Source of the DNA: a virus
Taxonomy: Duplodnaviria > Caudoviricetes
Direction: 5' to 3' (one strand)
Length of the DNA stretch: 41,365 bases
Virus record (IMG/VR): IMGVR_UViG_3300017908_000157
Location: 1-41,365 of that record
Below, piece after piece: positions 8,499-37,833 of the stretch; the first letter of the stretch is position 1; each line of letters starts with the position of its first letter. The translations under genes were made by a program, and so were the position numbers. Below the pieces are notes generated by a model. The model searched no databases. It worked only from the letters and a program-made list of their open reading frames with translations, and had not been told where the DNA came from.

Positions 8499-8515
8499 AA
8501 ATGGTCAGAGTTGTT
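8499..8515 (+). promoter_or_regulatory. FadR-like box (AAATGGTCAGAGTTGTT) without a rightward -10
   Basis: 16/17 match to the box at 13618; 1 bp from the leftward -35. Confidence 0.65.
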
Positions 8516-8909
8516 AGCACACATCGACAGAATAACACAGCACTTGGAATGTGTAATACCGTCTGTTTTGCCCTGTCCTGTATTCACCCATAACGTCTTG
8601 CGTCACGGTTATCTGCGTTCCATCGCCAACATAAAAGTTAGCTTTGACATACTCAAGCGCCGCCACTGCATCGTTGAATAAAGCATTCAATTCTTGCTTA
8701 GTTGCGTTTTTACCACTGAATAGCATAACGCTAACCGATACCTGTCTTACAAATGCGTCAACGGGTCGGCCTTCTTGCCTGCAATAGATGATAGGCTCAT
8801 CAATAGTGAATGGCTCAGTTGCTTCATCCCACTCAATCGCCGGATTGTAAGTAGGTAGCGCATTTGTGCGTATAAAGTCGCGTATAACGTCAGCGTGTCT
8901 TATGTTCAT
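8514..8909 (-). CDS. Tail terminator / completion protein
   Basis: Size and position immediately before major tail gene. Confidence 0.65.
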   Translation of the reverse strand: MNIRHADVIRDFIRTNALPTYNPAIEWDEATEPFTIDEPIIYCRQEGRPVDAFVRQVSVSVMLFSGKNATKQELNALFNDAVAALEYVKANFYVGDGTQITVTQDVMGEYRTGQNRRYYTFQVLCYSVDVC

Positions 8910-9316
8910 TATTTAGGCTCTATCATGTTTGCAAAAAGCCGCACAGCTTGCTCACCCTCTTCTTGCCATGCAATATTCATCCAGTTTGGTTTTGCGTCAG
9001 CGTTGTAGCCGCCACCTTTTTTACCTAGTGAATTAGGCGGTCTAGGGCTCCAATCTGTGCGCTCATGCAAAGCCGCAGCGTAATCGGTGTAATAGCCATA
9101 TGTTAAGCGCCAACCGTTGCCATTATCTCTAATACGATAACTCCTAGACTGCCTAAGCGCGCTCGTATCTATTGGTGTATATTCGTCAGCATGGCTCGCC
9201 AAGTGCGTATACATGGTAAATAACCCACGCTCTACGTCTTTAGGTAAATCCTCAGTTAGCGCCTTGTTTATCTTACGCGCTACGTCAGAAGGTGATTTTC
9301 CGGCTTTGAATGGCAT
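8909..9316 (-). CDS. Neck / HK97-gp10-like protein
   Basis: TPIDTSALRQS and YAAALHE motifs. Confidence 0.75.
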   Translation of the reverse strand: MPFKAGKSPSDVARKINKALTEDLPKDVERGLFTMYTHLASHADEYTPIDTSALRQSRSYRIRDNGNGWRLTYGYYTDYAAALHERTDWSPRPPNSLGKKGGGYNADAKPNWMNIAWQEEGEQAVRLFANMIEPK

Positions 9317-9318
9317 CG

Positions 9319-9657
9319 TTAACCCGTAAACGATTCATATTCTGTTATCTGACCGCGAATACCTGTGCCAAAACCAGTCTTACGCACCTTCTCCGCATTG
9401 CTTGGTGGCGTTGCATCCATAGAAGTACCGAAAACCACATAAGCATCAAACGGTATTTGCACAACGCTGTAAATGGACGTTGAAGGCTGAAACTCTACAC
9501 CCTCAGCATCACGCTGCATTGATCCGCCCGTCATGTATTCGCATGATATGGTTTGCGGCGCTGAGTATGATTGATTCGCGTATGGGTCGTTAGGGTCGTA
9601 ACCGCTTTCAGTCCAAAACGTTACCTTGTCAATCATGTGGCGGGTTGCTAGGCTCAT
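9319..9657 (-). CDS. Head closure (stopper) protein
   Basis: DPY...YSAP motif, position. Confidence 0.65.
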   Translation of the reverse strand: MSLATRHMIDKVTFWTESGYDPNDPYANQSYSAPQTISCEYMTGGSMQRDAEGVEFQPSTSIYSVVQIPFDAYVVFGTSMDATPPSNAEKVRKTGFGTGIRGQITEYESFTG

Positions 9658-9875
9658 AACTCACCTGTCACTTTGAAAAAGAACAAAGGCTCGTCGCTAA
9701 ACATTGCAGCAAAAGAAAACATCGCATCCGCTAAATCAAGCAATAACTCGCAAGCCCAATTCCTTGCAGATATTTCAGGGCATTCTGAATAAGGTTGATT
9801 GACGTATATTGGTACAAAGCCATACATCAAGCCTTTGTGAGTCCACTCTTGTCCGTACTTGCATTTTAACGACAT
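9654..9875 (-). CDS. Hypothetical protein
   Basis: Overlaps both neighbours in the neck operon. Confidence 0.6.
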   Translation of the reverse strand: MSLKCKYGQEWTHKGLMYGFVPIYVNQPYSECPEISARNWACELLLDLADAMFSFAAMFSDEPLFFFKVTGEL

Positions 9876-10231
9876 GGCTTAATGCTCCGCGCAAATCTCA
9901 ACGGTTTACTGAATAAACCGATTATACACTCACCAGCAGGAAGTGCCGCTAACTGTTGTCCGTAGCGCGTTGATTCAAGCCCTTTTCCGCCAAAGAAGCC
10001 ATAAGACGCGCTAGCGCCTTGCCTTGTGGTTTCGCTTGTTACGCTGCCACCTGATGACATTTCTATCATGTGCGCAACGGCTAGCGACACAGCCAAGTCT
10101 TGCATATCTTGATTGTAGTTAGACAAACACGCCTCAGCGTCATCGAACATAGCGCCATACAGGTCTATTTGCGCATCTGTTGCGCTTGGTAATAGCGCTT
10201 TAACTTTGTAGCTTGGTATGACGACGGCCAT
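9866..10231 (-). CDS. Head-tail adaptor protein (DUF4054-like)
   Basis: LAVAH and LESTRYGQQ motifs. Confidence 0.75.
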   Translation of the reverse strand: MAVVIPSYKVKALLPSATDAQIDLYGAMFDDAEACLSNYNQDMQDLAVSLAVAHMIEMSSGGSVTSETTRQGASASYGFFGGKGLESTRYGQQLAALPAGECIIGLFSKPLRFARSIKPCR

Positions 10232-10242
10232 TATAATCTTTC

Positions 10243-10283
10243 CACTGGTCGGAGTTGTTTGTGTATGACTAGTGTACTATATT
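10243..10283 (+). promoter_or_regulatory. FadR-like box promoter, class A
   Basis: CACTGGTCGGAGTTGTT-T-N17-TATATT. Confidence 0.75.
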
Positions 10284-10313
10284 CGGGGCTGAATTAACAA
10301 ATTGGAGATTGAT

Positions 10314-10517
10314 ATGGCATGGACACCACCAACCATGACTAAAGAACAAATGATTGATAGGGACATAGTAAACTTTATAGAGTATCTAAAAAATGAGTAT
10401 GGCATAACTAGGGTCTTGCCAAGCATAAAAATAAAAGATGGGGAGATTGTCATTTACGGTGGCTATACTGGGATAGCAATTAGTAGCGATGGTAGCGTTG
10501 TTTACGAGACTAAATAA
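10314..10517 (+). CDS. Hypothetical protein (antisense island 1)
   Basis: GGAGATTG RBS, ATG 10314, own promoter and terminator. Confidence 0.8.
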   Translation: MAWTPPTMTKEQMIDRDIVNFIEYLKNEYGITRVLPSIKIKDGEIVIYGGYTGIAISSDGSVVYETK

Positions 10518-10546
10518 AAACCCCGCACTAGGCGGGGCTTGTTCTT
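10516..10546. terminator. Bidirectional intrinsic terminator
   Basis: CCCCGC-acta-g-GCGGGG hairpin between convergent genes. Confidence 0.75.
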
Positions 10547-10697
10547 ACTTTTCGTCAGCCTTCGGTTTTGAGGTTTTACGTGTCGTCTTTTTAGGTGTAG
10601 CTACTTCAAGCTTTTTATCACCCGACTCACTTTCGACCTTTGGAGGGGTGATAATCTTACCACCCATACCAAACACGCGACCTTTAGCGTTAGCCAT
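10545..10697 (-). CDS. 50-aa Lys-rich protein after major capsid gene (MANAKGRVFG...KADEK)
   Basis: TAATG coupling with capsid stop; ends at terminator. Confidence 0.7.
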   Translation of the reverse strand: MANAKGRVFGMGGKIITPPKVESESGDKKLEVATPKKTTRKTSKPKADEK

Positions 10698-11773
10698 TAG
10701 ATTTCCCGCGCATACAGAACGCCCGAGCGTCCAGCCGTATCCGCTTTAATAAGCAAGCCAGCAGCGCCCCAAGTAACGAAGTTATAAGGGTCGTTAAACA
10801 TATTACGCACAACAGGCTGCGTATTAACAGCCATACCCACTTGCAACTGAACGTATTCATCAGAGTTAGCCCATGCTAGGAACTCGTTACCACTTAGCTG
10901 CGAGCCGTTAGATTTAACGATGTCAGCAACACCTGGAATATTACGCAATGCTTCAAGCGTGTTACGGAATTTTGAGTCCGCAGTACCTGTGCGTAGTGCG
11001 TTAAACCAGATTTCAGAACTTACCGCGAAGGTGATGTTCATATCAACGTTGTTAGCTGGCCCTTGTAGCGCTGTTAACGCTGCAATGATAGCCTTTTCAA
11101 AGTCTGCGTAAGTTGCAGAAGCCGAGGTTAAGTCAACGTTTACACCTGCCGCGCCCAACTGCAATGATTGCGTGTTAGGACTGTTCTTCATGCCGTAAGC
11201 CTGAGCGCCTTTGTATTGAACATCAGCAACGCCGTTAAGCGCATGGTCGTAGATGCTGCGACGCACAGAGCGAACAGTGTTTGCTTGGTCATCCTGCAAT
11301 GCGTCAAAGTCTTCACTGCGCATTGCTTCAACTTCACGCCATTGACGGCCAAATGCGTCGTCGTGAATCAACACTAGTGCACCGTCGTAATCGTAAGCTG
11401 CACGGTCTAGCTTGTGCGCTTGACGACCGCTGATAGTGGCTTGTGCCGCGCCAGAGTCAGACGCTTGTGCGTACTCAGCAACGATTTTGCCAACAGGCAG
11501 TGAGCGAGTCGGTAGCAATGAAACGATGTTAGCACCTTCATCACCAGCCATTACGCGCTTAATCGTGCGGTCGAAGTCGCGGTAAGTGTCTTGTGGTACA
11601 CGACCAGCGTTAGCCGCTAGAAACGAGTTACCCATCAAGCCAGCAGATACAGCCTCGCCGATAAGGTTCGCTTCACGGTTGCCGTGAAGTTTACGCATAT
11701 TAACAATTTGGTTGTATTGCGCTTTTGCATTGCCAGAGTTAGCAATGATTTGTTTATCAAGATATAAGCTCAT
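10697..11773 (-). CDS. Major capsid protein
   Basis: 358 aa after protease/scaffold and decoration genes; GMKNSPN motif. Confidence 0.85.
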   Translation of the reverse strand: MSLYLDKQIIANSGNAKAQYNQIVNMRKLHGNREANLIGEAVSAGLMGNSFLAANAGRVPQDTYRDFDRTIKRVMAGDEGANIVSLLPTRSLPVGKIVAEYAQASDSGAAQATISGRQAHKLDRAAYDYDGALVLIHDDAFGRQWREVEAMRSEDFDALQDDQANTVRSVRRSIYDHALNGVADVQYKGAQAYGMKNSPNTQSLQLGAAGVNVDLTSASATYADFEKAIIAALTALQGPANNVDMNITFAVSSEIWFNALRTGTADSKFRNTLEALRNIPGVADIVKSNGSQLSGNEFLAWANSDEYVQLQVGMAVNTQPVVRNMFNDPYNFVTWGAAGLLIKADTAGRSGVLYAREI

Positions 11774-11783
11774 TACTTACTCC

Positions 11784-12200
11784 TTATTTCACGTATACGC
11801 GAATTGAGCCAGCGCTACCAGTGGTAGTTACAGCCTCGTCAGCGTATGCAATTACGTTAGTGCCAGCACCAAGCGCAACCAAGTTACCAGATGCGTCGGT
11901 GGTGAGCGCGTCGTCTTTAGCGATAGTTTGACCTGCCGCTAGCGCCATTTCGTAGTACTCACCCGATTGAGGTCGAGCGCCTTGTACGGTTTCACCTGCC
12001 GGGTAATCTTCTGTAACCTCGCCAAGAACATTCTCTAGCGCGAAGTAAACCATGCCTTCTTGGTCAGCACCAGCTGCCGCAAATGCGCCAGATGATACAA
12101 CCAAAACTTGGCGTGGGCTGATAACTTCAGACGCAGGAAATTCCGTTACGTCAGGATGGCTCTCAGCAGGGCCAATATAAACTATGTTTGACATTACCAA
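11784..12200 (-). CDS. Head decoration / cement protein
   Basis: Small Ala/Gly-rich protein immediately before capsid gene. Confidence 0.7.
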   Translation of the reverse strand: MVMSNIVYIGPAESHPDVTEFPASEVISPRQVLVVSSGAFAAAGADQEGMVYFALENVLGEVTEDYPAGETVQGARPQSGEYYEMALAAGQTIAKDDALTTDASGNLVALGAGTNVIAYADEAVTTTGSAGSIRVYVK

Positions 12201-12205
12201 TCCCC

Positions 12206-13567
12206 TTATTCTGGAAGTGTGTCAGATAGGTAAGAATCGTCAGAGTTGCCCTCTAACGATTGCGCACCCGCTAAACCAAAAGCCGCTGGCTTTGGTAGCA
12301 TTGCTTTAAGTGAGTTAACCGAAAGCGCTTTGATTTCAGACTCAGACAATTCGATTGAATTAGCTTTAAGCTTTTCAGCCAGCTTTTTCTTTTCTTCCTC
12401 GTCTTCGTCGTCTTTCATGTCTTTCATAGCCGCTTTCACAGCCTCATTAACCATGGCTTGCACGTCGGGCTGGCTCTGCTCGCCCTGTGCGGTTGTTTCG
12501 GCGGCATTCGCCTGTAGCATTGACTCGTAAGCCTCTAGCATTGCGGCATCATCCATATTGGCTGTGTCAATACTGTTAGCTTTGAGTTGCTTCATAATAT
12601 GCTCTTTGAACATATCTTTGCCCTCGTCTTGGTTTGAAGTTAAGCCCACAAATGGACTGGTTAGAACACTTTTAACACCCGAAGAAATGCGCTCCCAAAT
12701 GGTTTTACGCTTCACTTCTTCCAGTGTGTCGTCAATCATTACGGATTCACCATCACGCATGTATTTAACCATGTAAGACGTTTCACCGTCCTCAAATACT
12801 GCGTAATCGTCACCGAAGTCATTAAGCCATACGTGCTTTTCGTTGCCACCAAACTTCTTTTGTATCTCAGCTTGGAGCGTTTCACGTAGGTCATTAAAAG
12901 ATTGGTTTACGTCTAGCACGGCAGTATTAACTGATAACTGTTGACCGTCATGCTGTACGTGTGTGAATAGATTTGCATTAACCATCATGCCTACACCGTC
13001 GGCTGGTGTGGCTGCACCGTCTTCGTCAAGTAAAATCGCATCGTGGTCGAACACATACCCCACAGCCTTCCAAGCGTACTCTTTGCCGTTATCAGAAACG
13101 CCTTGCTCATTAACACGATTAAGCAATACGCCTGTGCTTGTGTGAATCGGCTGGTTAGTGTCGATAGCCTCGATTAGTCTGCGCCCACGCTCTGTTTGCA
13201 TGGCGGTATCAACGTGGATATGCTTTTCAACATAAACCCTATGCCCATATTGCTCGCACTCGACACGCTTAACATTCTTGTTAAACACGCCGCACTGATA
13301 GTACAGAATTCCGTCAGGGCTGTTTGCAGTGATGAAGTTACCTTGTGCATCGGTTGGGTGCCCAATGGGTGCGGGAGTATCTTCAAGGCTTGCATAACCT
13401 TTTTCGATTTCCTCAGCTGGGTATAGGCCGCCATTCATTACCACGTTATCCGGCAATGTATAACTAGGTACAATATACACCAAATCGCCGCGCTCGTTAC
13501 GCTCACGACGAATTGCTGAGTTATTTACCCTATTAACTATCGTTACTAATTGCTTTGTCATAGCCAT
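12206..13567 (-). CDS. Prohead protease / scaffold protein
   Basis: VMNGGLYP, PAPIGHP, FDHDAILL motifs; helical C-terminus. Confidence 0.8.
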   Translation of the reverse strand: MAMTKQLVTIVNRVNNSAIRRERNERGDLVYIVPSYTLPDNVVMNGGLYPAEEIEKGYASLEDTPAPIGHPTDAQGNFITANSPDGILYYQCGVFNKNVKRVECEQYGHRVYVEKHIHVDTAMQTERGRRLIEAIDTNQPIHTSTGVLLNRVNEQGVSDNGKEYAWKAVGYVFDHDAILLDEDGAATPADGVGMMVNANLFTHVQHDGQQLSVNTAVLDVNQSFNDLRETLQAEIQKKFGGNEKHVWLNDFGDDYAVFEDGETSYMVKYMRDGESVMIDDTLEEVKRKTIWERISSGVKSVLTSPFVGLTSNQDEGKDMFKEHIMKQLKANSIDTANMDDAAMLEAYESMLQANAAETTAQGEQSQPDVQAMVNEAVKAAMKDMKDDEDEEEKKKLAEKLKANSIELSESEIKALSVNSLKAMLPKPAAFGLAGAQSLEGNSDDSYLSDTLPE

Positions 13568-13587
13568 AAATACGGTTATTTTTCACT

Positions 13588-13616
13588 ATGGTATCGCGTA
13601 TGGGTTGTGGGGTCAA
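13588..13616 (-). promoter_or_regulatory. Sigma70-like promoter for scaffold-capsid operon
   Basis: TTGACC-N17-TACCAT. Confidence 0.65.
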
Positions 13617-13617
13617 C

Positions 13618-13658
13618 AACTGGTCAGAGTTGTTGCGGATGTGTTTATGGTGTAGGTT
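13618..13658 (+). promoter_or_regulatory. FadR-like box promoter, class A
   Basis: AACTGGTCAGAGTTGTT-G-N17-TAGGTT. Confidence 0.75.
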
Positions 13659-13688
13659 TGGTGAAGGTTTAATTTGGAGATTGAGATT

Positions 13689-13841
13689 GTGAGATACAAA
13701 GTAAAAACGCAAATGATAATGGAAGAAACCCTATGGGTTGAAGCTGATAACGAGGATGATGCGAAAGCAATGGCTCATGCAGAAGCTTCTTATGTTGATG
13801 GCAGTTGGTACGATGCTGAGATTTTGGAGGAAGAAGAATGA
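13689..13841 (+). CDS. 50-aa acidic hypothetical protein (island 2)
   Basis: GGAGATTG RBS + GTG; MRYKVKTQ...EILEEEE. Confidence 0.7.
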   Translation: MRYKVKTQMIMEETLWVEADNEDDAKAMAHAEASYVDGSWYDAEILEEEE

Positions 13842-13984
13842 ACCTAAAAACCCCAAAGCAAGTCATCAACATGCGCAAGAAAGCTAAACAGGCGGCTATT
13901 GACGAAACCAAGCGTTTACAGCAACGCCGCCTAGATGCCGATGAGCGTAAATTTTTAAATGAGTTTAGGGAGGTTTGGGAGTGA
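13838..13984 (+). CDS. 48-aa hypothetical protein
   Basis: ATGA overlap, GGAGG upstream. Confidence 0.65.
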   Translation: MNLKTPKQVINMRKKAKQAAIDETKRLQQRRLDADERKFLNEFREVWE

Positions 13985-14148
13985 GTGACAAATGCGCAAG
14001 AATAATATCCGGAGCCATATTCGATTACAATCAAATGATTCTAGGTAAGCCCAAGGCTGAGTTTTCTCCATTAATTATTTTGGATAGAGAACAAATCGAG
14101 CAACTCCAACACTTCGCCAAACAAGGCGTTAAGGTTAGGTTGAAATGA
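13981..14148 (+). CDS. 55-aa hypothetical protein
   Basis: GTGA overlap, GGAGG upstream. Confidence 0.6.
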   Translation: MSDKCARIISGAIFDYNQMILGKPKAEFSPLIILDREQIEQLQHFAKQGVKVRLK

Positions 14149-14315
14149 GCATTAAGAAAGTAATCGGGTATACTGGTTTGATTTTGGTTTTCCTTTTCGT
14201 CGTTGGCGTGCAAGCTTATGAATACGGCCTAATTGCCGCCATCTTAAATTGGGTTATTGTCGCATTTATATTCGCTATAATTATTTACTGCATAAAGCTC
14301 ATTGAGGAGAGTTGA
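14145..14315 (+). CDS. 56-aa two-TM membrane protein
   Basis: ATGA overlap; two hydrophobic segments. Confidence 0.65.
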   Translation: MSIKKVIGYTGLILVFLFVVGVQAYEYGLIAAILNWVIVAFIFAIIIYCIKLIEES

Positions 14316-14316
14316 T

Positions 14317-14613
14317 ATGATTATAAACCATATCAAAAAGCATGGATTTAAAGTTACTTGGTGCAAGCTATTTCATAGCTATAAGTGCTCAGAGTTTGCT
14401 TTTAAAAGCATAAGAGTCTCGCCCTGCGATTTCTTCGATGGTGTAAATGACTATGTGGCAACGTATGAGGTTAAATGCAGTTGCGGCTGCTCATACGAGC
14501 AATCATTCTTAATTCTTGGAAAAAGCGAGTATTTCCCTGAGGGCTGCCCTGACATCTACGGGGCGCAAATAAAAGCTAGAAACTCAACAAGAATGGAGTT
14601 GGTAGGGAAATGA
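14317..14613 (+). CDS. Cys-rich hypothetical protein
   Basis: GAGGAG RBS, ATG 14317; CSCGC motif. Confidence 0.65.
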   Translation: MIINHIKKHGFKVTWCKLFHSYKCSEFAFKSIRVSPCDFFDGVNDYVATYEVKCSCGCSYEQSFLILGKSEYFPEGCPDIYGAQIKARNSTRMELVGK

Positions 14614-14780
14614 GCTACCAACATCAACTAGCAATCGAATTTATGAGCAAGCTATCTGCAAGCGTTGTGATATATCAATGTATGCAGGCAGAGTACAGTG
14701 AGAATTGGATAGATTCAATAAATGGCGAATTCGACAAGACATACGAAGAAATTTACGGCTATTTGCCGCATGGGTGTTGA
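14610..14780 (+). CDS. 56-aa hypothetical protein
   Basis: ATGA overlap; tiles the island. Confidence 0.55.
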   Translation: MSYQHQLAIEFMSKLSASVVIYQCMQAEYSENWIDSINGEFDKTYEEIYGYLPHGC

Positions 14781-14781
14781 T

Positions 14782-15027
14782 ATGAAATTCACACCATTTA
14801 ACGAACCCGTGCCCAACATAGACTACGAATATTCGCCCCAACAAACAGTAAGCGATACTGCAAATAGAATGATGCGTGATTTTTACGAAGAGTTAGAGGG
14901 CGTAATATGTTGCGCAATGGCTGCCGGAGTTAGCGCAAGCCAGATAATCATGACGGAGCCAAAAATGATTACGAATGGATATGAGGTAAAGATGGTGTGC
15001 AATATAAGTTTCGAGGGGTTGATCTAA
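14782..15027 (+). CDS. Hypothetical protein
   Basis: ATG right after the previous stop; converges on head morphogenesis gene. Confidence 0.6.
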   Translation: MKFTPFNEPVPNIDYEYSPQQTVSDTANRMMRDFYEELEGVICCAMAAGVSASQIIMTEPKMITNGYEVKMVCNISFEGLI

Positions 15028-15956: not shown

Positions 15957-15961
15957 GGCTC

Positions 15962-16001
15962 AACTGGTCTAATCTGTTAATTGGTATTAGTGTACTACAC
16001 T
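15962..16001 (+). promoter_or_regulatory. FadR-like box promoter, class B
   Basis: AACTGGTCTAATCTGTT-A-N16-TACACT. Confidence 0.75.
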
Positions 16002-16030
16002 GTGCTGGATTTAACTAATTGGAGAAGATT

Positions 16031-16294
16031 GTGAAGAAAGTTATCGTTGAGGTGCCAGAAGATTACACCAGAATTCGTTACAGTAGAAAAGGTGATGAAT
16101 GCTCTATGTATTACGCAAAAGAAGTCAGCTTTACACCTGAGTCGAAAATACAACAACCATCCGTACCGATTCAGTTTGTTTGGCACGATGGATGTCTTTA
16201 CCATGAAGATTCATGCCGAAACATGGAGCTACCAATAGAAGAAAACTGCACCGTCGAGCAAATCGGCGCTGTGCTTTATGTGAGGGGTGAGTGA
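16031..16294 (+). CDS. Hypothetical protein (island 3)
   Basis: GGAGAAGATT RBS + GTG 16031. Confidence 0.7.
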   Translation: MKKVIVEVPEDYTRIRYSRKGDECSMYYAKEVSFTPESKIQQPSVPIQFVWHDGCLYHEDSCRNMELPIEENCTVEQIGAVLYVRGE

Positions 16295-16620
16295 TGTTTA
16301 AGGTCACAGAAAAGGCGATGAGGCCAGCGTCACCAAATAGAAACTGCTTTTATTGCGGCGAGCCTGTTGGGGGTACGCATAGGGATTCTTGCGTACTTAT
16401 AAATAGAAAAGTAAAGGTAAAGGTTTCTTTTGAAATGGTTATTAATGAGCCTGCGTCATGGGATAAAGAGTTTATAGAATATGCTAAAAATGAAGCCTCG
16501 TGGTGTACCGATAATATATTGAATGATATATGCGAAAAGGCAGATAGCGAGGGATGCTCTTGCGGGTTTGGAAGCGTAGAGGTTTTAGAGTTGACGGATG
16601 ATGTATTTCTGGATGAGTAG
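16291..16620 (+). CDS. Cys-rich hypothetical protein (possible Zn-binding)
   Basis: CFYC...H...C; overlap with previous gene. Confidence 0.7.
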   Translation: MMFKVTEKAMRPASPNRNCFYCGEPVGGTHRDSCVLINRKVKVKVSFEMVINEPASWDKEFIEYAKNEASWCTDNILNDICEKADSEGCSCGFGSVEVLELTDDVFLDE

Positions 16621-16644: not shown

Positions 16645-16693
16645 ACCCGGAGATTTGGGCTTCCCTGTTGGTTTTCTTGGCGTATACCCTTGG

Positions 16694-20913: not shown

Positions 20914-22242
20914 TCACCCGTTTATGTTGTTTGATAGTATCGGCGCGTTGATATTGTTTGACAATACGCGCTGGTTAATGTTCGTTTCTTTATCGACTAT
21001 TATCGCAATTCCACCAACAATAGCAACTATGCTAACGCTAGGTGTTGAAATGGTGTAGCTTACTGTTGATTCTGGTTGCGGCAATGTCGCTGTTGCTTCT
21101 GCGCTGAATGTTGGCGCAGGTACCGTGTAGTTAACATCTGCAACGTAGCCCGTCAGTGTCGCCGATGCGTCAACACTGAATTGAGGTGCTGCGATTGTAT
21201 AGCTGACATCTGCGATTGGTTGAGGTAATGAAGCCTTAGCACTAGCGTTAAACGCTGGCGCTGCAATACTGTAATCCACGGTAGCCGTTGGTTGTGACAG
21301 TGTCACATTAGCCGATGCGCTAAATGTTGGCGCATTTACAGTGTAAGCAACTGACGCACTAAAGCCTGGTATTGTGGCGCTCGCTTCTGCGTTAAATGAC
21401 GGCGCGTTAACCGTGAAATCAATATCGCCTATCGGTTGCGGCAAGTTGGCCGTTGCGTTGGCTGTAAAGCTTGGTGTATTGACAACAAAAGACACATCGA
21501 TAATCGGTTGTGGCAACGTCGCGCTACCATTGACGCTAAAGCTTGGCGCGTTAATCGTAAAACTTGCGCCTGCGCTTGGTTGTGGCTGCCATGCATCAGC
21601 GCTAGCCGTGAATGTCGGAGCGCTTATTGTGTAGTTTACATCTGCGCTTACTGGGTTAAATATACCATCATCAACCTCAAAATCATATACGCGCAGATTG
21701 CCGTCAGTATATAACGCATGGTAAAAACCAGCGTAATTACCTGTTGTTATTTCCGAGTCAGTGACAGAAATCACTTCTACACCGTCAACTTTTGCGGCAA
21801 TAGTGCTGCCAATCGCGCTTAACTCAAATTCGTTACTTTGCGATGCGTTGAAACTGACCTGTACTGATGCCAGCAGGCTTGCAGAGCCGTTGATGCGCTT
21901 AAATAGAAAAAGATTATCCTGACCGCTAACTGCTTGGCGCATATTTAACGAGTAGTTTGTGCCTGCTGTGCCGCGCTGATTGTCAGACCTAGCAACCAAC
22001 TGAAACCTGTTATCTGCCCCGCCTGCGTTTATTGTTGCTGTGACAATCTGGTCACTTTGCCCAGTATCTATCCAAGCTGAGTCCCCAGTTGCTGCAAACT
22101 TTACAGCCCCACTTCCATCCAATTCTACAAGATTTGGATCGTCCTGATTCCACCCAGTGCCAACAATATCAATATCTGGCGCATGGTCCGCTATATCAGT
22201 GCCGTTAGCTCCATTGAAATCATCAAAAACTAAAATGGCCAT
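20914..22242 (-). CDS. Fibre-like virion protein: N-terminal lectin-like beta domain plus about 9 x 24-aa repeats
   Basis: Repeats of the type PxADVxYTxxAPxFxASAxATLPQ. Confidence 0.65.
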   Translation of the reverse strand: MAILVFDDFNGANGTDIADHAPDIDIVGTGWNQDDPNLVELDGSGAVKFAATGDSAWIDTGQSDQIVTATINAGGADNRFQLVARSDNQRGTAGTNYSLNMRQAVSGQDNLFLFKRINGSASLLASVQVSFNASQSNEFELSAIGSTIAAKVDGVEVISVTDSEITTGNYAGFYHALYTDGNLRVYDFEVDDGIFNPVSADVNYTISAPTFTASADAWQPQPSAGASFTINAPSFSVNGSATLPQPIIDVSFVVNTPSFTANATANLPQPIGDIDFTVNAPSFNAEASATIPGFSASVAYTVNAPTFSASANVTLSQPTATVDYSIAAPAFNASAKASLPQPIADVSYTIAAPQFSVDASATLTGYVADVNYTVPAPTFSAEATATLPQPESTVSYTISTPSVSIVAIVGGIAIIVDKETNINQRVLSNNINAPILSNNING

Positions 22243-22820: not shown

Positions 22821-22868
22821 GATTATTCCTCGCGTATGTATTGACTTAGTATACGCTTTGTTCAGGCG

Positions 22869-23946: not shown

Positions 23947-23964
23947 TTCCCAATCTCCTTTGTT

Positions 23965-24092
23965 CGCTTTGGTGAATGACTGACCGATACCACACTGACC
24001 AAGCTCATTACCCTATTTGCTATGCTTTCGGGCGCTTCTTGCGTTACATCCCTTGTAGCCATTCCCAAAACGCCCTATTGCTAGGGACGTTT
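23965..24092 (-). ncRNA. Structured ~130-nt leader RNA
   Basis: GCAA-tetraloop hairpin plus long-range and nested stems with G-U pairs; no ORF. Confidence 0.45.
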
Positions 24093-24094
24093 AA

Positions 24095-24135
24095 ACATTA
24101 CACCGTAACCCATAACTTAACAACTCTGACCAGTT
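24095..24135 (-). promoter_or_regulatory. FadR-like box promoter, class A
   Basis: AACTGGTCAGAGTTGTT-A-N17-TAATGT. Confidence 0.75.
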
Positions 24136-25198: not shown

Positions 25199-25238
25199 AC
25201 CTTAACACCGATTATGCGCTTAACAGATTAGACCAGTT
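25199..25238 (-). promoter_or_regulatory. FadR-like box promoter, class B
   Basis: AACTGGTCTAATCTGTT-A-N16-TAAGGT. Confidence 0.75.
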
Positions 25239-29170: not shown

Positions 29171-29198
29171 ATTATACCAGTGTTGTGCTGGTGGTCAA
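29171..29198 (-). promoter_or_regulatory. Sigma70 promoter of replication operon with spacer palindrome
   Basis: TTGACC-N16-TATAAT; ACCAG-N7-CTGGT at 29176-29192. Confidence 0.75.
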
Positions 29199-29638: not shown

Positions 29639-29943
29639 TTCACCTGTATCAATTCTTTTTCGTAAAGCTTCATTTGCGTTTCTTGTAGCGCCCTCATTTG
29701 GTCATGCATATCAACCTTGCCGCTGTCTAACCATGAGTGACACCAATTGCAGCCATACACGCCGAATAAATCGGGCGATTTAAACCCCATGCCGCGATAG
29801 TTGCTTTGCAGGTGGCAAAATACAACTGTCTCACCATCTTGGCACTGCGGGTGAACTCGCAAGCTGCATGATTCGTTACGTGCGCTTTCGCGTATTTTCT
29901 TTGATTTAATCATTAGACTTTTCCTTCTCCATAAAATACTCAC
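29635..29943 (-). CDS. DUF1364-like nuclease-domain protein (start may be MIKSKK)
   Basis: IRESARNESCSLR, TVVFCH and GCNWCH motifs. Confidence 0.75.
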   Translation of the reverse strand: MSILWRRKSLMIKSKKIRESARNESCSLRVHPQCQDGETVVFCHLQSNYRGMGFKSPDLFGVYGCNWCHSWLDSGKVDMHDQMRALQETQMKLYEKELIQVK

Positions 29944-30385: not shown

Positions 30386-30576
30386 TACTCACCTGCCTTT
30401 ACAAATTCGCTAACTGACACATTGAAAAACATTGCCATTTTAGATAATAGGCGTGGATTGTTCTCGCCTAGCAATTTTGAAAGATACGCATTAGTTATCT
30501 TTAGGTATGCAGCTAGGTCTTTTTGCTGCTTTTCGTGCATTGCGCACATTACTTTTACTGATTTTTTGAGATTCAT
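30385..30576 (-). CDS. Cro/XRE-like HTH regulator
   Basis: QQKDLAAYLKITNAYLSKL...FFNVSVSEF. Confidence 0.85.
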   Translation of the reverse strand: MNLKKSVKVMCAMHEKQQKDLAAYLKITNAYLSKLLGENNPRLLSKMAMFFNVSVSEFVKAGE

Positions 30577-30617
30577 ACTTGTTTACCTTTTGAGTTTGTT
30601 TATACTAGGTATCAATC

Positions 30618-30645
30618 ATTATAAATGGTAAACTAAATAACGCAA
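30618..30645 (-). promoter_or_regulatory. Leftward sigma70 promoter of divergent control region
   Basis: TTGCGT-N16-TATAAT. Confidence 0.65.
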
Positions 30646-30650
30646 TGGAT

Positions 30651-30691
30651 AACTGGTCGGAGTTGTTAAACTTTAAAAATTCGCGTACATT
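30651..30691 (+). promoter_or_regulatory. FadR-like box promoter, class A (main rightward operon)
   Basis: AACTGGTCGGAGTTGTT-A-N17-TACATT. Confidence 0.8.
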
Positions 30692-30720
30692 TGCCACATC
30701 GAATCAACTGGAGATTTTAA

Positions 30721-30933
30721 ATGCGAGTATATCGCGGTCAATGGCGCAAGCCACTAAAGCAGAAAACGCCTAATGCTGGCACAAAAAACAAAGCACAGCA
30801 TAAGCGTAAATTTTTATGCAATGACGGCCCGCTATCAGGTCAATCATTATTTTTAACTGATGGTATCAGTGCAATTTTTACAATAAACGGCATTAAAGGC
30901 CGTTACAACAATGGAGATTGGGAACAATGCTAA
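30721..30933 (+). CDS. Basic hypothetical protein
   Basis: GGAGATT RBS. Confidence 0.7.
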   Translation: MRVYRGQWRKPLKQKTPNAGTKNKAQHKRKFLCNDGPLSGQSLFLTDGISAIFTINGIKGRYNNGDWEQC

Positions 30934-31928: not shown

Positions 31929-32941
31929 TGATCACTATTGCGAAAAAATACGCAGAAGAAATTAAGCAAGTATGTCAAGCGGCTGCGAGTCGCGCATCAA
32001 TCCAGGCTTTCGAGAATATTTATATTCATGCAGATGAAAGCGGTACTGTTAAATTAAAGGCTGGCGACTCAATGATTGAGATTACTCGGTTCATTGCGGC
32101 TGATAAATTTGAATCCGGCTTTGAAACGACGGTGAATGCACCTAAGTTCCTGCAAGCTTTTAACGCTTGCTCTGGTGATGTTCAGATTATTGTTAAAGAT
32201 AAAATGACCATAAAGTCAGGTAAGCGCAGATTTACACTGCCGATCATTAGCGCTGAGTCCTACCCAGCATACCCAGAAATGGATGACGCGCAAAAGATTG
32301 AGTGCGACGGGTTTATTGAAACCGTTAAGCAGTCAGCGTGGGCGGCTGGCAAGAATGATGTTAGATACGTTATAAATGGTGTTTATATTTCAAAAGATGC
32401 CGTTGGCACTAACGGTCATAAGATGGCTGTTACCCCAATCGGCCTGGATTGTGAAATTATTTTGCCAATAGAAACGATTAACAAAATCCCAGCCATTGAC
32501 GGTGATATTTATATCAGTGATTCGGTTATGGCTATTAAGTCAAAAGACGTTGAGTTTAAAACTAAGTTAATAGATGGCAGATACCCAGACTACAAGCGAG
32601 TTATTCCGACTTGCGACAAAACTGCAAGCGTTGACCTAGATGAGTTTAAAAGTGCCGTTAAAGCTGCTCAGATTACAGCTAGCAGTCAATTTAAAACCAT
32701 TGTCATGTCATTCGGTAGTGAGTGCAGTATTAGCGCGACAAGCTCTGATAAGCGTGAAGATTCATCTATCGGGTTCGAGTGTGATTGCTCTGATGCATTT
32801 GAGTTTGCCGTCAACTCCTCGTACCTGTTAGAAGCATTAAATGAGTTAACGTTGCCTAACGTTGAGCTTCAATTCTCATATGGGATGATGATGATTGAGG
32901 AGGCGGGTAAAAAATTAATTATTTGCTCAGTGAGATTGTGA
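31928..32941 (+). CDS. dnaN: DNA polymerase III beta sliding clamp
   Basis: GTNGHKMA, KLIDGRYPDYKRVIP, NSSYLLEAL and terminal SVRL match DnaN motifs. Confidence 0.9.
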   Translation: MITIAKKYAEEIKQVCQAAASRASIQAFENIYIHADESGTVKLKAGDSMIEITRFIAADKFESGFETTVNAPKFLQAFNACSGDVQIIVKDKMTIKSGKRRFTLPIISAESYPAYPEMDDAQKIECDGFIETVKQSAWAAGKNDVRYVINGVYISKDAVGTNGHKMAVTPIGLDCEIILPIETINKIPAIDGDIYISDSVMAIKSKDVEFKTKLIDGRYPDYKRVIPTCDKTASVDLDEFKSAVKAAQITASSQFKTIVMSFGSECSISATSSDKREDSSIGFECDCSDAFEFAVNSSYLLEALNELTLPNVELQFSYGMMMIEEAGKKLIICSVRL

Positions 32942-34305
32942 TGGAATATCAAGAATTTTTAAAACAGAAAGAATTTAACAAGGTTTCAGTTGGCTTTATG
33001 CCAACTGACCTAAACGAAAACCTATGGCTGCACCAGCCTGCTATTGTCGAGTGGGCTTGCCGTCGAGGTCGAGCTGCTATTTTTGCTGATACTGGTTTAG
33101 GAAAAACATTAATGCAGCTTGAATGGGCTAATCAGGTTTCACAGCATACTGGGAAGCCCGTGTTACTTCTTGCGCCGTTAGCTGTTGGCAGGCAAACAGA
33201 AAGTGAGGCGAAAAAGTTTAATATTTTATCGTCGTGCAGGTTTGTTGAAAGGCCGTGTAGCGTTACGCGCATACAGATAACCAATTATGAAAAGCTTGAT
33301 CACTTTAACCCAGATGATTACGCGGGTATCGTCATTGATGAAAGTTCAATACTTAAAGGACAAACGGGCGCATACAGAAAGATGCTAACTGAATTTGCTG
33401 CGAACATCGAATACCGACTAAGTTGCACCGCTACGCCAAGTCCTAATGATTTTATGGAGCTAGGTACGCAATGCGAGTTTTTAGGGATCATGTCACAAGT
33501 TGAAATGCTATCTATGTTTTTTACTCATGATGGCAGCGAGACTCAAAAGTGGCGATTAAAAGGGTGGGGCGCATCTAAGTTTTGGGATTGGCTGGCAACG
33601 TGGGCGGTCGTCATTTCTAGCCCTGCCGATCTTGGTTTTGATGGCTCAAGCTATGATTTGCCGCCATTAAGTATTGATGAAGTTATTCTCCATAAAGACA
33701 AAAAAGATGGCTTATTTGCCGATGTTGCTATGGGGCTTAGTGCTGCAAGACTGGCAAAGAAGTCGAGCGTGGAATCCCGCGTTAAAGCTTGCGCCGATTA
33801 CGTCAACTCGTTAAATGAACCTTGCTTGATTTGGGCTGAAACAAACGAGGAAGCCGATTTACTAGAAAAGGCAATTGATAATTGCGTCCAGGTCGCAGGC
33901 TCAACCAAAGAGGATAAAAAAGTTGATTATCTTATTGGGTTTTCTCAGGGTAAATATGACCGATTGATCACCAAGGCGAAAATAGCGGGCTTCGGGCTTA
34001 ACTGGCAGAACGCCTGTAAAATGACTTTCGTTGGTGCTACCTACTCATTTGAGCAGTTTTATCAAGCTGTACGCCGTGAGTGGCGTTTTGGCCAGACAAA
34101 GCCTGTTACTGTTAAGGTTTTTATGACCGAAGAAGAAACAGGCATACATAGCGCCATGCTTGCAAAGATGGAAAATGACAAGTTGATGCGTCGCGAAATG
34201 ATCAAGGTTATGTCTGAATCGATGAAAAAAGAGATAACGGGCGCATCAAGCGAAAAAGCGGAATATAATCCAACAGAAAACGCTTCGATGCCAAGCTTTC
34301 TGTAA
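32941..34305 (+). CDS. SNF2-like SF2 helicase
   Basis: DTGLGKT, DESS, TATP, GLNWQ and QAVRREWRFGQ motifs; ATG 32941. Confidence 0.9.
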   Translation: MEYQEFLKQKEFNKVSVGFMPTDLNENLWLHQPAIVEWACRRGRAAIFADTGLGKTLMQLEWANQVSQHTGKPVLLLAPLAVGRQTESEAKKFNILSSCRFVERPCSVTRIQITNYEKLDHFNPDDYAGIVIDESSILKGQTGAYRKMLTEFAANIEYRLSCTATPSPNDFMELGTQCEFLGIMSQVEMLSMFFTHDGSETQKWRLKGWGASKFWDWLATWAVVISSPADLGFDGSSYDLPPLSIDEVILHKDKKDGLFADVAMGLSAARLAKKSSVESRVKACADYVNSLNEPCLIWAETNEEADLLEKAIDNCVQVAGSTKEDKKVDYLIGFSQGKYDRLITKAKIAGFGLNWQNACKMTFVGATYSFEQFYQAVRREWRFGQTKPVTVKVFMTEEETGIHSAMLAKMENDKLMRREMIKVMSESMKKEITGASSEKAEYNPTENASMPSFL

Positions 34306-34343
34306 CTGGTCTAATCTGTTATGCGTCGATAATGGCGCATAAT
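34304..34343 (+). promoter_or_regulatory. FadR-like box promoter, class B
   Basis: AACTGGTCTAATCTGTT-A-N16-CATAAT. Confidence 0.8.
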
Positions 34344-34370
34344 GCCTTACCTATTAAAGGAGATTGAAAG

Positions 34371-35069
34371 ATGAGTAAGCCGATTGATTTCTGGGCTAAG
34401 GTCGAAAAGACCAACCCGAAATACACAAAAAACGCCAACGTATCAGGCCAGCAGCGAACCGCTGTTGATGCGCAATATAAAAAGAAAATGATTACTGAGC
34501 AATTTGGCATGTATGGCTTAGGCTGGGGCGTAAAGCCTGAATCTGAAAAATACGAGCGATGCCACTTTGAGAATCAAACCTGCATCTTAACTTATACAGC
34601 AACGGCTTTTTATAAGTGGGAGGGTGAGGTTGCAGAGTTCCCAATCGCCGCACAAATAAAAGAGTCATACGTAACTAAAAACGGCTCTGGATATTTAAAG
34701 ATAGATGATGAGGCAGTCAAAAAGGTTCGCACCGATGCGCTAACAAAAGGGTTTACAGACCTTGGCTTTTGCGCTGACATTCACATGGGTATGTTTGACG
34801 ACCAAGATTATGTTCACGGCGCTCAAATGGCGGCATATGCTAAAGAGCAGGATGAAAAAGAAGAAGCGGCGAAAAAGTCATACGATGAAATAAAGGCGTG
34901 GTTAGCCAATGAGCTTAAATCAGCTGAGACGGTTAGCAGTAACGAAGCGTATAACCGCGCCATTGATAGGTTAAAACAGAAAGTTGAAACGAAGTGTAAA
35001 GTGGCTGGATTGGCTAGTCGCGGATTTACCGATAAACTTGAAAACTCTAAACGGGAGATTGTGAAATGA
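34371..35069 (+). CDS. Rad52/Sak-like single-strand annealing protein
   Basis: FGMYGLGWG and DEAVKKVRTDALTK...LGFCADI motifs; near ssb. Confidence 0.65.
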   Translation: MSKPIDFWAKVEKTNPKYTKNANVSGQQRTAVDAQYKKKMITEQFGMYGLGWGVKPESEKYERCHFENQTCILTYTATAFYKWEGEVAEFPIAAQIKESYVTKNGSGYLKIDDEAVKKVRTDALTKGFTDLGFCADIHMGMFDDQDYVHGAQMAAYAKEQDEKEEAAKKSYDEIKAWLANELKSAETVSSNEAYNRAIDRLKQKVETKCKVAGLASRGFTDKLENSKREIVK

Positions 35070-36073
35070 GTAACATTGTAATTTTTAAAGACATGACGAC
35101 TGAGGAAAAGCTTATCCAGATTGAGGAGCAATCAAAACAGTTTGAAGGCTTGGTTGTAGATATGAATAAACCAGCGGATCGCAAAAAGGTTAAGGAAAGC
35201 GCCGCTGTAATTAACGATATACTCAAAAAGCTAGACCGCGCACGTATTGACCGCAAAAAGGAGTACGCGCAACAGGTAGAGGATGAGGCAGCTTTTATTC
35301 GTGGCCGTTTAGAGTCAGCTAACGCGCCATTAACTGCATTAATCGACGCGCACAAAGAGCAAGAGAGACTAAAGCGAGAAGCGGAGAAAGCTCGTCAAGA
35401 TGAAATCGACAACGCATTTTCTAGAATGAATGACATGGCAATGGAGGCTATTGGGCAAACATCGACTGTCATTGAGTCAATTATTGATGAATTAGCTGAT
35501 TATGATTTTAACCCTGACACATTCCAAGAGCGCACCGAGGATGCTGTTAAAAAGCATTCTGAGTTGATGCAGCGCCTTGATATGATGAAGCAGCAAGCAA
35601 CGGCACAGGAAGAGTTGGAGGCAAGAGCCGCAGAAATCGAACGCAAAGAGCGTGAGCAGGCAGAAAAGGAAGAGGCTGAACGTTTACGTATTGAGCGTGA
35701 GAAAATCGCACATGAAGCCGCAGAGAAAGCCAGAATCGAAGCGGAAGAACGCCACCAGCGAGAAATGCAAGAGGCTGAACAGCGTCGTATTCGTGAAGCT
35801 GAAGAAGCCAAGCAAAGAGAAGTCGAAGCCGAGAAACGCGCAAAGGCGCAAGCGGAAGCTGCATCACAAGCAGAGCGTGAGCGCATCGAGGCTGAGCGAT
35901 TGGCTAAAGAAGAGGAAGAGTGCAAGCGCGAAGCAGACCGCAAGCACAAAGGTAAGGTTCATTCCGAAATAGTAAAAAACCTTACTAATGCAGGCTTGAG
36001 TGAGTCTGATGCGAAAAAGGTGGTTGAGTTAATCGCTAAAGGCCAGGCTGGCAACGTGCGGATTTATTACTAA
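35066..36073 (+). CDS. Long coiled-coil E/R/A-rich phage protein
   Basis: Composition; READRKHKGKVH C-terminal motif. Confidence 0.75.
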   Translation: MSNIVIFKDMTTEEKLIQIEEQSKQFEGLVVDMNKPADRKKVKESAAVINDILKKLDRARIDRKKEYAQQVEDEAAFIRGRLESANAPLTALIDAHKEQERLKREAEKARQDEIDNAFSRMNDMAMEAIGQTSTVIESIIDELADYDFNPDTFQERTEDAVKKHSELMQRLDMMKQQATAQEELEARAAEIERKEREQAEKEEAERLRIEREKIAHEAAEKARIEAEERHQREMQEAEQRRIREAEEAKQREVEAEKRAKAQAEAASQAERERIEAERLAKEEEECKREADRKHKGKVHSEIVKNLTNAGLSESDAKKVVELIAKGQAGNVRIYY

Positions 36074-36525
36074 TGATTATCATAGGAATAGACCCAGACA
36101 GTAGCGCTAATGGCGTTGCTGTATACCGAAATGGATCTCTAGTCGAGTTACTTTCGCTAAACACTTTCCAGTTAATCACTTTTATAGCTTGTTGCCTGTC
36201 TGAATCCGATGTGGTAGTGCATATAGAAGATGTTTTCGGTATAAGTGCGGCATTTACAGCAAGAGATAAGAAAAAGTCTTTAGCTGTAAAGTTAAAGATG
36301 GCTCAGCATATAGGCATGTGCAAGCAGGCTCAGATTGAGGTTGAAAGGATATGCGAAGCCTACGAGGTTAAGGTAGTAAAACACAAAGTTTCTAAAATGT
36401 GGAAAGATGCCGATTCAGGCAAAAAGCAATTTGAATCAATCACTGGCTGGAAAGGTCAGAGCAACCCAGATAAGCGAAGTGCGGCGTATTTTGGCTGGCT
36501 TGGCGTAACTTCAAAGAGGAAATAA
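36073..36525 (+). CDS. RuvC-like Holliday junction resolvase
   Basis: IIIGIDP and VHIED motifs. Confidence 0.7.
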   Translation: MIIIGIDPDSSANGVAVYRNGSLVELLSLNTFQLITFIACCLSESDVVVHIEDVFGISAAFTARDKKKSLAVKLKMAQHIGMCKQAQIEVERICEAYEVKVVKHKVSKMWKDADSGKKQFESITGWKGQSNPDKRSAAYFGWLGVTSKRK

Positions 36526-36529
36526 AAAC

Positions 36530-36922
36530 ATGGCAAAACGATTAGTAGCAAAAGTTGGCGAGTACCAAAAAGACGGCCAAACAAAAGGCGAGTACGTGAA
36601 AATTGGCGTGATACTGGAAAATCAAAACGGCGAATATATGCTTATTGACCCTTCTGTCAGCCTGTCCGGTGTGCTAGCTAAGCAGAATGCAATGGCTGCT
36701 AATTCAGGTCAGCCTGTTCGTGATAACGTAATGGCAAGTATTTTTACTGACCAAAATCAGCAGGGCGGTTATCAGCAAAACAATCAGCAACAAAGTAATC
36801 GCCAGCAACATAATCAGCAGCAAGGAAATTACAATCAAGGCAATAATCAGCAGCGCAGCAATCCGCCTGCAAATAGCTATCAGCAGAACGGCGAGCCAGA
36901 CTTCTCGTTTGATGACGACTAG
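36530..36922 (+). CDS. Single-stranded DNA-binding protein-like
   Basis: Q/N-rich linker and acidic aromatic tail PDFSFDDD. Confidence 0.6.
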   Translation: MAKRLVAKVGEYQKDGQTKGEYVKIGVILENQNGEYMLIDPSVSLSGVLAKQNAMAANSGQPVRDNVMASIFTDQNQQGGYQQNNQQQSNRQQHNQQQGNYNQGNNQQRSNPPANSYQQNGEPDFSFDDD

Positions 36923-37016
36923 CTTCGGCTAGTTAACATATAGAGAATAATTGACATGCCGTTTTAAATTTAAACTAAACACAACCAGGGCGCACCACGC
37001 GCCCAAGTGAGGGAAG

Positions 37017-37271
37017 ATGTTATATAGAAATTACACCATTAAGAAACTCAGAGAGTTAGGTAGCAAGTTAGGCAGGGATGGCGTATCTGAAGAGGTGCAA
37101 AAATGCATTTCAGAATACGATGGAAGCTATAAAGGAGCAATGGAGTTATGCGGCAAGCTTTTTGTAATGGCTGAAATGTCAACTTTCGACACGTATTGGG
37201 AAGAGCAAACTCAAAGAGGAGTCGATAAGCAGACCTCAATATGCTGCGAATTAATGAGGAATGAAAAATGA
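37017..37271 (+). CDS. Hypothetical protein
   Basis: GAGGGA RBS. Confidence 0.7.
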   Translation: MLYRNYTIKKLRELGSKLGRDGVSEEVQKCISEYDGSYKGAMELCGKLFVMAEMSTFDTYWEEQTQRGVDKQTSICCELMRNEK

Positions 37272-37795
37272 AAACAACACTACTAAGCCTAATCAGCGAT
37301 GTAACGATTTGGCACTACAATAGAAATTTAATTAACGGTTCTAGCGACAAAGACCAATTCCATAAGCTCATCCAGGAGTGCGCAGAGCTATCGGATAACA
37401 TATGCAAAGGAAACGACATACGCGACGATATAGGCGACATTCTTGTTGTACTGATAAACATAGCAGAGCGTAACTGCTTGACGTTACAAGAGTGCTTACA
37501 GGTGGCGTATGACGATATTAAGCATCGTAGAGGCCGAATGGTTGACGGTGTGTTTGTCAAGGAGGCTGATTTGAGTCCAGAGTGGCCAGAAAAATCAGGC
37601 GATAACATGGAGTTTACGCATTTGACAGGTGAAGCGGTTAAAGCGGGAGTCGTGAAGAGCAAATTGAAATGCGTATCATGTATGCGAAAGTCTGGATTCG
37701 TATGTCCGCATTATTCCACTGCTACTATGCAGTTTTGCTTTAAGTGCAATTGTAACACGCCTCACATTCATGAGTTTAAGTTTAATAACCCCTAA
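37268..37795 (+). CDS. MazG-like NTP pyrophosphohydrolase with C-terminal Cys-rich extension
   Basis: QFHKLIQECAEL...DDIGDILVVL...AYDDIKHRRG; CVSC...CFKC tail. Confidence 0.85.
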   Translation: MKTTLLSLISDVTIWHYNRNLINGSSDKDQFHKLIQECAELSDNICKGNDIRDDIGDILVVLINIAERNCLTLQECLQVAYDDIKHRRGRMVDGVFVKEADLSPEWPEKSGDNMEFTHLTGEAVKAGVVKSKLKCVSCMRKSGFVCPHYSTATMQFCFKCNCNTPHIHEFKFNNP

Positions 37796-37833
37796 CTGGT
37801 CTAATCTGTTAAACCCGCATTAGGTGGTATTGT
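37794..37833 (+). promoter_or_regulatory. FadR-like box promoter, class B
   Basis: AACTGGTCTAATCTGTT-A-N16-TATTGT. Confidence 0.8.

Follow-up and report, generated by a model that had tools for sequence, protein, structure and literature searches.

Does a bacteriophage place its early promoters under the fatty acid regulator of its host? The question is raised by the virus record IMGVR_UViG_3300017908_000157, analysed here over its full length of 41,365 nucleotides (the window), in which nine copies of a 17-bp pseudo-palindromic box resemble the operator of FadR, a regulator that reports long-chain acyl-CoA. A first-pass annotation of the window had proposed that host FadR activates the promoters behind these boxes, with phage transcription possibly gated by host fatty-acid status. 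Comparison with sites in the presumed host family lends good support to the FadR reading, and we put at about 0.72 the probability that acyl-CoA-free host FadR binds the boxes and helps the sigma-70 polymerase at the early accessory, methylase/clamp/helicase and recombination operons.

Box-led promoters in the window

All nine boxes were recovered with the coordinates, strands and sequences given in the first-pass annotation, and the eight -10 hexamers and spacings that it had listed were likewise confirmed. A search with the pattern AACTGGTCNNANNTGTT, allowing at most one mismatch, returned 9 matches in the window as compared with a mean of 0.01 and a maximum of 1 in 100 shuffles, a figure that measures repetition, since the pattern was derived from these same copies. 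The gap from box to -10 hexamer is 18 nt (1+17) for the class A boxes at 10243, 13618, 24135 and 30651, and 17 nt (1+16) for the class B boxes at 15962, 25238, 34304 and 37794. The box at 30651 matches the Escherichia coli fabA site at 15 of 17 positions and has the identical 18-nt gap; in the K-12 record the fabA promoter has the box given in the first-pass annotation, an 18-nt gap and the hexamer TATCCT. Against a fabA box of Thalassotalea the match of the 30651 box is 16/17. Compared with the 17-bp palindrome aaCTGGTCnGACC(T/A)Gtt (consensus from PMC9329746), each of the nine boxes agrees at 13-14 of 16 positions. In this ~94% coding genome, eight of them fall between genes or share 2 nt with a stop codon, and the box at 24135 is situated inside the 3' end of a conserved small open reading frame (ORF).

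Two parts of the initial description required revision. In class A, the final five box bases and the one that follows them (TTGTTN) occupy the canonical -35 position at 17-nt spacing, as in fabA, and the box consequently overlaps a weak -35 in promoters that had been described as having no separate canonical one. A ribosome-binding site and a gene had been said to follow each promoter, which holds for seven of the eight (start codon 27-30 nt past the -10), whereas at 24135 a leader of ~150 nt intervenes. This leader (23947-24094, minus strand) is conserved and weakly structured (z -2.3) and has no match in Rfam; its first part recurs in Alteromonas phage PB15 and in several IMG/VR relatives.

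On the plus strand, the class A promoter at 10243..10283 (18 nt, TATATT) leads a small ORF to which no function was assigned (start 10314), antisense within the head-tail region, and downstream of that at 13618..13658 (18 nt, TAGGTT) is a cassette of seven small ORFs without assigned function (~13689-15027). The class B promoter at 15962..16001 (17 nt, TACACT) precedes two further ORFs of this kind (~16031-16620). Downstream of the class A promoter at 30651..30691 (18 nt, TACATT) are ORF 30721, a DNA methyltransferase, a sliding clamp and a helicase, up to 34305, while the class B promoter at 34304..34343 (17 nt, CATAAT) leads an exonuclease-type gene, a coiled-coil ORF, a Holliday junction resolvase, further ORFs and a MazG-like gene (34371-37795), and that at 37794..37833 (17 nt, TG-extended TATTGT) leads small ORFs at 37863-38406. 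On the minus strand, the class A promoter at 24095..24135 (18 nt, TAATGT) is followed, past its leader, by ORFs 23946-23243, and the class B promoter at 25199..25238 (17 nt, TG-extended TAAGGT) by small ORFs from 25170, one of them NinH-like. A sigma-70-like promoter (TTGACC-16-TAAAAT; 30714-30741, minus strand) was also seen opposing the 30651 promoter, and the pair could give convergent transcription toward a Cro-like/NinB operon.

Likeness to FadR operators of the host family

The virus record is complete, and direct terminal repeats of 141 nt stand at 1-141 and 41225-41365. PHROG scans of its 71 ORFs identify a tailed phage in which the morphogenesis block and an initiator/DnaC/DnaB operon run leftward and a block of methylase, clamp, helicase, exonuclease, resolvase and MazG genes runs rightward; no integrase was found among the 71 ORFs scanned. 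The phage is marine, and its closest cultured relatives are the Alteromonas phages XX1924 and PB15 and the Pseudoalteromonas phage H6/1. XX1924 shares the methylase operon at 90-98% and most structural proteins at 63-91%, and from the latter we therefore infer that the host is probably an Alteromonas-type bacterium. The host group used for comparison was the family of Pseudoalteromonas sp. EB27 (G001), which we take to include Alteromonas.

A host lacking fadR, raised in the first-pass annotation as a possible objection, is not what this family offers: the FadR_C domain is present in 120 of its 121 genomes. Twenty FadR N-termini, extracted from 34 loci, have a recognition helix and wing almost identical to those of E. 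coli, and keep the DNA-contacting residues given in PMC4259882. Upstream of fabA, 28 of 30 sampled host-family loci have a box that differs only slightly, NACTG(T/C)TCRGAGTTGTT being its usual form, as do Pseudoalteromonas EB27 and a Thalassotalea metagenome-assembled genome (MAG; G005), and the gap from this box to TANNNT is 18 in 31/31 promoters, E. coli included. When the window was scanned with a matrix built from 30 host fabA sites, the five class A boxes took ranks 1-5 with 20.1-26.4 bits, the next site scoring 9.1.

The exact class A box together with a -10 gave 10 matches in the GTDB collection: six directly before fadL-type genes (Shewanella, Photobacterium), two on phage-like contigs, one intergenic in EB27 and one in Prevotella. 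Two of the six fadL-type genes were checked by hidden Markov model (HMM), and FadL was the best family for both, below the curated cut-off. The Shewanella fadL box has the fabA-like geometry in L097, L102, L103 and L105, and a second box follows the -10 in L102 and L103. A looser, class-B-like pattern matched 43 times in 33 of 61 host genomes, against 18 matches for a control pattern. Of 29 new loci of this kind that were read, 19 have lipid-catabolism neighbours, namely volA-type lipases (16 loci, 4 checked by HMM) and, once each, a fadH-like gene (here with the exact class B sequence), fadB and an acyl-CoA dehydrogenase; two of the remainder are beside putative thioesterases, and eight have other neighbours or no gene next to them. 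Taken at the level of sequence, both box classes look like host FadR operators. A phage-like box plus -10 with the full left arm matched 12 times in 11 of 201 host genomes, mostly not at lipid genes, and carries little information.

Two observations concern the host genomes themselves. The boxes of volA/Pla-1-type lipases are placed just past a -10 in 16 of the 29 host-family loci (L408-L434), which suggests that this lipase may be a core FadR target in the family. In L263 and L270 (host genomes G114 and G188), a conserved non-coding stretch without a long ORF, possibly a small RNA, follows a FadR-type box that has the fabA-like geometry.

Box-led promoters in other phages

The boxes and their spacing are conserved across unrelated phages. 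Exact copies of class A or class B are present in 83 IMG/VR stretches, in some of them clearly by chance, and the box-plus--10 pattern in an estimated ~260. At least four box matches were counted in eight of 12 near-complete viral records, which had been picked mostly for one exact box, as compared with 0-2 for a control pattern. Among cultured phages, XX1924, PB15, H6/1, HS2 and BS5 carry several boxes each (seven in HS2, against a single 1-mismatch site in the control phage HP1). These five have boxes and geometry in common and are mosaic in gene content, and their GenBank feature tables, as far as fetched, list no such element.

A set of 113 distinct box contexts (126 rows before duplicate removal) shows TANNNT at gap 17 in 67 and at gap 18 in 21 (88 together), and no other offset exceeds 12. 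The right arm ends in TTGT in each of the 21 gap-18 promoters, while gap-17 promoters accept any right arm; a TG-extended -10 is found in 46/67 gap-17 promoters versus 4/21 at gap 18. The fixed assignment of class A to 18 nt and class B to 17 nt, put forward as a property of the element, proves to be a trait of this genome and not of the family, and was ruled out as a general rule: 17 of the 67 gap-17 promoters have the class A right arm. The two classes would be better read as two ways to anchor sigma-70.

A tblastn comparison (E 1e-3) of the window genes with 18 phages, 17 of them box-bearing, found no gene common to all box-bearing phages, very distant homologues being possible, and a host factor is therefore indicated. 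Two contigs of box-bearing phages (L099/G005:C1 and L101) were assigned by binning to MAGs of Thalassotalea and Pseudomonadales, respectively. Approximately three FadR-like boxes, outside the 17/18-nt -10 geometry, were also seen in the gene-free end of an Enterovibrio podophage (Vibrio phage 1.070.O, MG592447; L404:43700-43794).

The timing of box-led genes was read from phage HS2, whose host has FadR, by matching its GenBank ORFs to Table S2 of PMC7082346 (coordinates = 11984 or 49712 minus GenBank position). The seven HS2 boxes are all at gap 17, and the first gene after each (PSAHS2_00026, 22, 16, 09, 06, 62 and 48) is classed as Early in 7/7 cases. Three of these genes form isolated cassettes antisense among Late genes, similar to those behind the boxes at 10243, 13618 and 15962 in the window.

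Probable mode of action and evidence against it

Repressing FadR sites overlap the -10/+1 region, and activating sites are positioned upstream (PMC9329746). Host volA boxes are placed 1-12 nt after a -10, and the fabA and phage boxes 17-18 nt before one. Binding and activation by FadR have been described for Shewanella fabA, which is lowered by oleate (PMC4537474, PMC4273635). Judged by position, activation is likely a better reading than repression. The level of FadR in E. coli is reported to be lower in stationary phase (PMC9329746).

After injection, free host FadR would bind the boxes and aid the host sigma-70 polymerase in reading the weak promoters that precede the accessory, methylase/clamp/helicase and recombination operons. 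At gap-18 promoters the TTG of the box would serve as the -35, and most gap-17 promoters would add the extended -10. Release of FadR by long-chain acyl-CoA, as expected from its known chemistry, would then lower these transcripts, probably by a few fold rather than to zero, with the core DnaB operon and most late genes independent of FadR.

Several points weigh against a FadR-driven, lipid-gated phage. The effect of FadR on Shewanella fabA is only ~2- to 2.5-fold: it is ~2-fold in an E. coli reporter (PMC4537474), and fabA falls to ~40% in S. oneidensis (PMC4273635). The fadL genes of Shewanella and Photobacterium show the fabA-like geometry, and fadL is FadR-repressed in E. coli; position, therefore, does not prove activation. 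The TG-extended -10 elements of the gap-17 promoters and the usable TTG -35 of class A make basal, activator-free activity possible. On the fabA matrix, class B boxes reach no more than 3.3 bits (rank 19) in the oriented form and 11.5 in the symmetrised one. The operon for a helix-turn-helix (HTH) protein, the replication initiator, DnaC and DnaB is preceded by a near-consensus sigma-70 promoter without a box (TTGACC-16-TG-TATAAT; 29171..29198, minus strand), and the start of replication would therefore not need FadR. In HS2, 67% of the genes are early anyway, which puts the naive chance of 7/7 at ~0.06, and sampling started 15 min after phage addition (PMC7082346), so the timing fits but is weak alone. 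The host assignment, finally, rests on similarity to phage XX1924. Of the original proposal, the FadR-type boxes, the fabA geometry, the presence of FadR in the likely hosts and the absence of a phage GntR gene stand, whereas the word gated is too strong. For the phage, FadR may be a sensor or no more than an activator that is always at hand, and true gating of infection by fatty acids is doubtful.

Candidate late-strand promoters and possible repression

The class A variant at 8499..8515 (plus strand), situated before the tail-tube gene, has no -10 on its own strand and is kept in 5/5 relatives aligned. On the opposite strand, a candidate late promoter TTTACT-17-TATTAT (8469..8497, minus), predicted to serve the major tail gene at 8025-8438 (phrog_1407), starts 1 nt after the reversed box, and in the aligned relatives the same 1-nt distance separates the box from a late-strand TTTAC(A/T)-17-TATTAT ahead of the tail-tube gene. 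Likewise, the box at 13618 abuts, back to back, the divergent candidate late promoter TTGACC-17-TACCAT (13588..13616, minus), whose operon would run from 13567 into head decoration/capsid-type genes, and in several relatives TATACT or TATAAT appears within a few bases after a reversed box. A role of the boxes at late promoters is thus possible, and that of the 8499 box on the late strand had been overlooked in the earlier reading. A fixed FadR geometry at late promoters was rejected, as the distances from box to late -10 vary widely among relatives; tight packing may therefore explain part of the adjacency. The starts of late operons also share a motif GCG(N)TATACT / GCGATACCAT, seen in the window at 22847-22856 (minus) and 13588-13597 (minus) and in many relatives, which possibly marks a late-promoter class.

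It is unlikely that FadR binds the boxes and represses or damps the early promoters by covering the -35, in which case fatty acids would raise early expression, or that it mainly affects the back-to-back late promoters. Such an action would accord with the overlap of the box with the -35 position, with the shared geometry at the Shewanella and Photobacterium fadL genes, with extended -10 elements that allow activator-free transcription and with the placement of the 8499 and 13618 boxes. However, the boxes share their geometry with fabA, a promoter with demonstrated activation, the catabolic volA genes of the host have the box after the -10, the box-led genes of HS2 are early in a FadR-bearing host, and the late -10 distances show no constancy.

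Phage-encoded regulators and other alternatives

The absence of a GntR-family gene, noted in the first-pass annotation, was borne out in searches of the window with Pfam FadR_C and GntR, with phmmer using E. coli FadR and the P24 mini-GntR, and with a profile of seven phage mini-GntRs; the same profile finds no match in XX1924, H6/1 or HS2. Mini-GntR genes, which encode 70-90 aa comprising the DNA-binding domain only, are found in G127, G133, G135, the G005 phage contig, P24, G150 and PB15 (G127:C1:21100-21234, G133:C1:17024-17164, G135:C1:15987-16118, L230:14369-14596, L106:11035-11259, L112:1-222 and L003:28542-28808), the PB15 copy being frameshifted and unannotated. They occur in 4/12 near-complete viral records, or in 5/29 records including one weak match, a count that omits 6 of the 35 box-scanned records. 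The FadR residues R35, R45, R49 and G66 are kept, and H65 in 3/6 of the aligned proteins. A mini-GntR is encoded downstream of a box in G133, G135, P24 and PB15, and the promoter concerned in G133 and G135 resembles that at 37794. At the site of the mini-GntR in relatives, the window has ORF 38050-38406, for which no Pfam family was found and the only Atlas matches are unnamed and below 0.9. The mini-GntRs, which the earlier reading did not take into account, are optional extras, absent from XX1924, H6/1 and HS2.

That a phage protein, a mini-GntR or an HTH protein acting like MotA of T4, is the true activator and the FadR likeness inherited is quite improbable. Mini-GntRs with the FadR-type residues do exist in some relatives, and the window encodes two Cro-like HTH proteins in addition to the NinH-like one. 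Conversely, R35, R45 and R49 are general GntR features and H65 is irregularly kept, mini-GntRs are missing from most of the near-complete records as well as from the window, XX1924, H6/1 and HS2, and none of the window genes, those for HTH proteins included, recurs in all the box-bearing phages compared.

Very improbable, in turn, are plain sigma-70 promoters that were captured once from a host fabA-like promoter and then copied, the upstream arm now being functionless. The TTGTTN -35 of class A at 17 nt and the TG-extended -10 of most gap-17 promoters would suit such an origin. However, the left arm ACTGGTC, placed ahead of the -35, hardly varies among the contexts collected (in part an effect of the search pattern), while the spacers are free, and it is nearer to the FadR consensus in the phages than in host fabA. 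The FabR site that fabA has in its spacer is missing from the phage spacers, which vary, and the 8499 box is kept without a -10 of its own.

A reading of the boxes by another host GntR regulator, PdhR for instance, is scarcely credible, and PdhR, the one such regulator compared, was rejected as binder: TGGT cores are common to GntR operators and a PdhR-type gene stands upstream of aceE in 28/28 host loci read, but C at position 3 and G at position 15 occur in 0/27 host PdhR sites versus 8/9 and 9/9 phage boxes, and a 27-site host PdhR matrix scores all nine boxes below zero, so that the comparison of matrices called for in the first-pass annotation comes out as FadR-type.

Apart from the promoters, an ORF at 20914-22242 (minus) that adjoins small structural genes contains seven 24-aa repeats (72-nt period) and has no PHROG family. 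Rfam and ARAGORN gave no matches within the window.

Relation to known systems and implications

The nearest likeness is to the fabA/fabB promoters of E. coli and Shewanella oneidensis, whose 17-bp box likewise has TTGTT at the end of its right arm and is positioned 18 nt before the -10 and over the -35. The phage boxes differ in being multiple, in preceding non-lipid genes and in having the full consensus left arm ACTGGTC; their spacers are without the FabR site, and half of the promoter copies here are at a 17-nt gap. The middle promoters of T4 offer a second parallel, as the MotA box there takes the place of the -35 with host sigma-70 polymerase, with the difference that MotA and AsiA are phage proteins, whereas here the box is a host-type operator and no common phage factor was found.

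Phage co-option of the host regulators CtrA, Spo0A and LexA is known (PMC9437464): promoters of unrelated phages carry sites for a regulator that the phage does not encode, and CtrA can either activate or repress in this setting. These regulators report the cell cycle, sporulation and DNA damage, while FadR reports long-chain acyl-CoA, and the boxes described here are spread over most early operons and form part of the core promoter. Those cases are backed by binding or reporter data, whereas the FadR reading here comes from sequence comparison. No FadR-controlled phage promoters were found in the literature searched, which did not extend to subscription papers, and the excerpts of the HS2 papers PMC7082346, PMC5498523, PMC11170926 and PMC12282109 make no mention of such promoters or motifs (general background in PMC5343134 and PMC3896788). 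The principle of host-regulator co-option by phage is thus already known, and FadR as the regulator is apparently new.

A wider picture can be drawn only tentatively. Phages of Alteromonas and Pseudoalteromonas might read the acyl-CoA pool via FadR as a metabolic checkpoint, so that early accessory and recombination operons would fire during lipid building and be damped on lipid feeding or starvation; the FadR dimer would also touch the back-to-back late promoters, and a ligand-blind mini-FadR in some relatives would override or reset the switch. Published time courses exist for HS2 and its host, an established virocell model, and much is known about FadR, its ligand and its operator. Among uncultured marine phages, the box would be an easy means of recognising early operons as well as hosts that possess FadR. 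Phages are known to read host regulators of DNA damage, sporulation and the cell cycle; a FadR-dependent set would, if true, constitute a genome-wide promoter class built on a sensor of a lipid metabolite, and would tie the infection of common marine copiotrophs to the lipids of particles and blooms.

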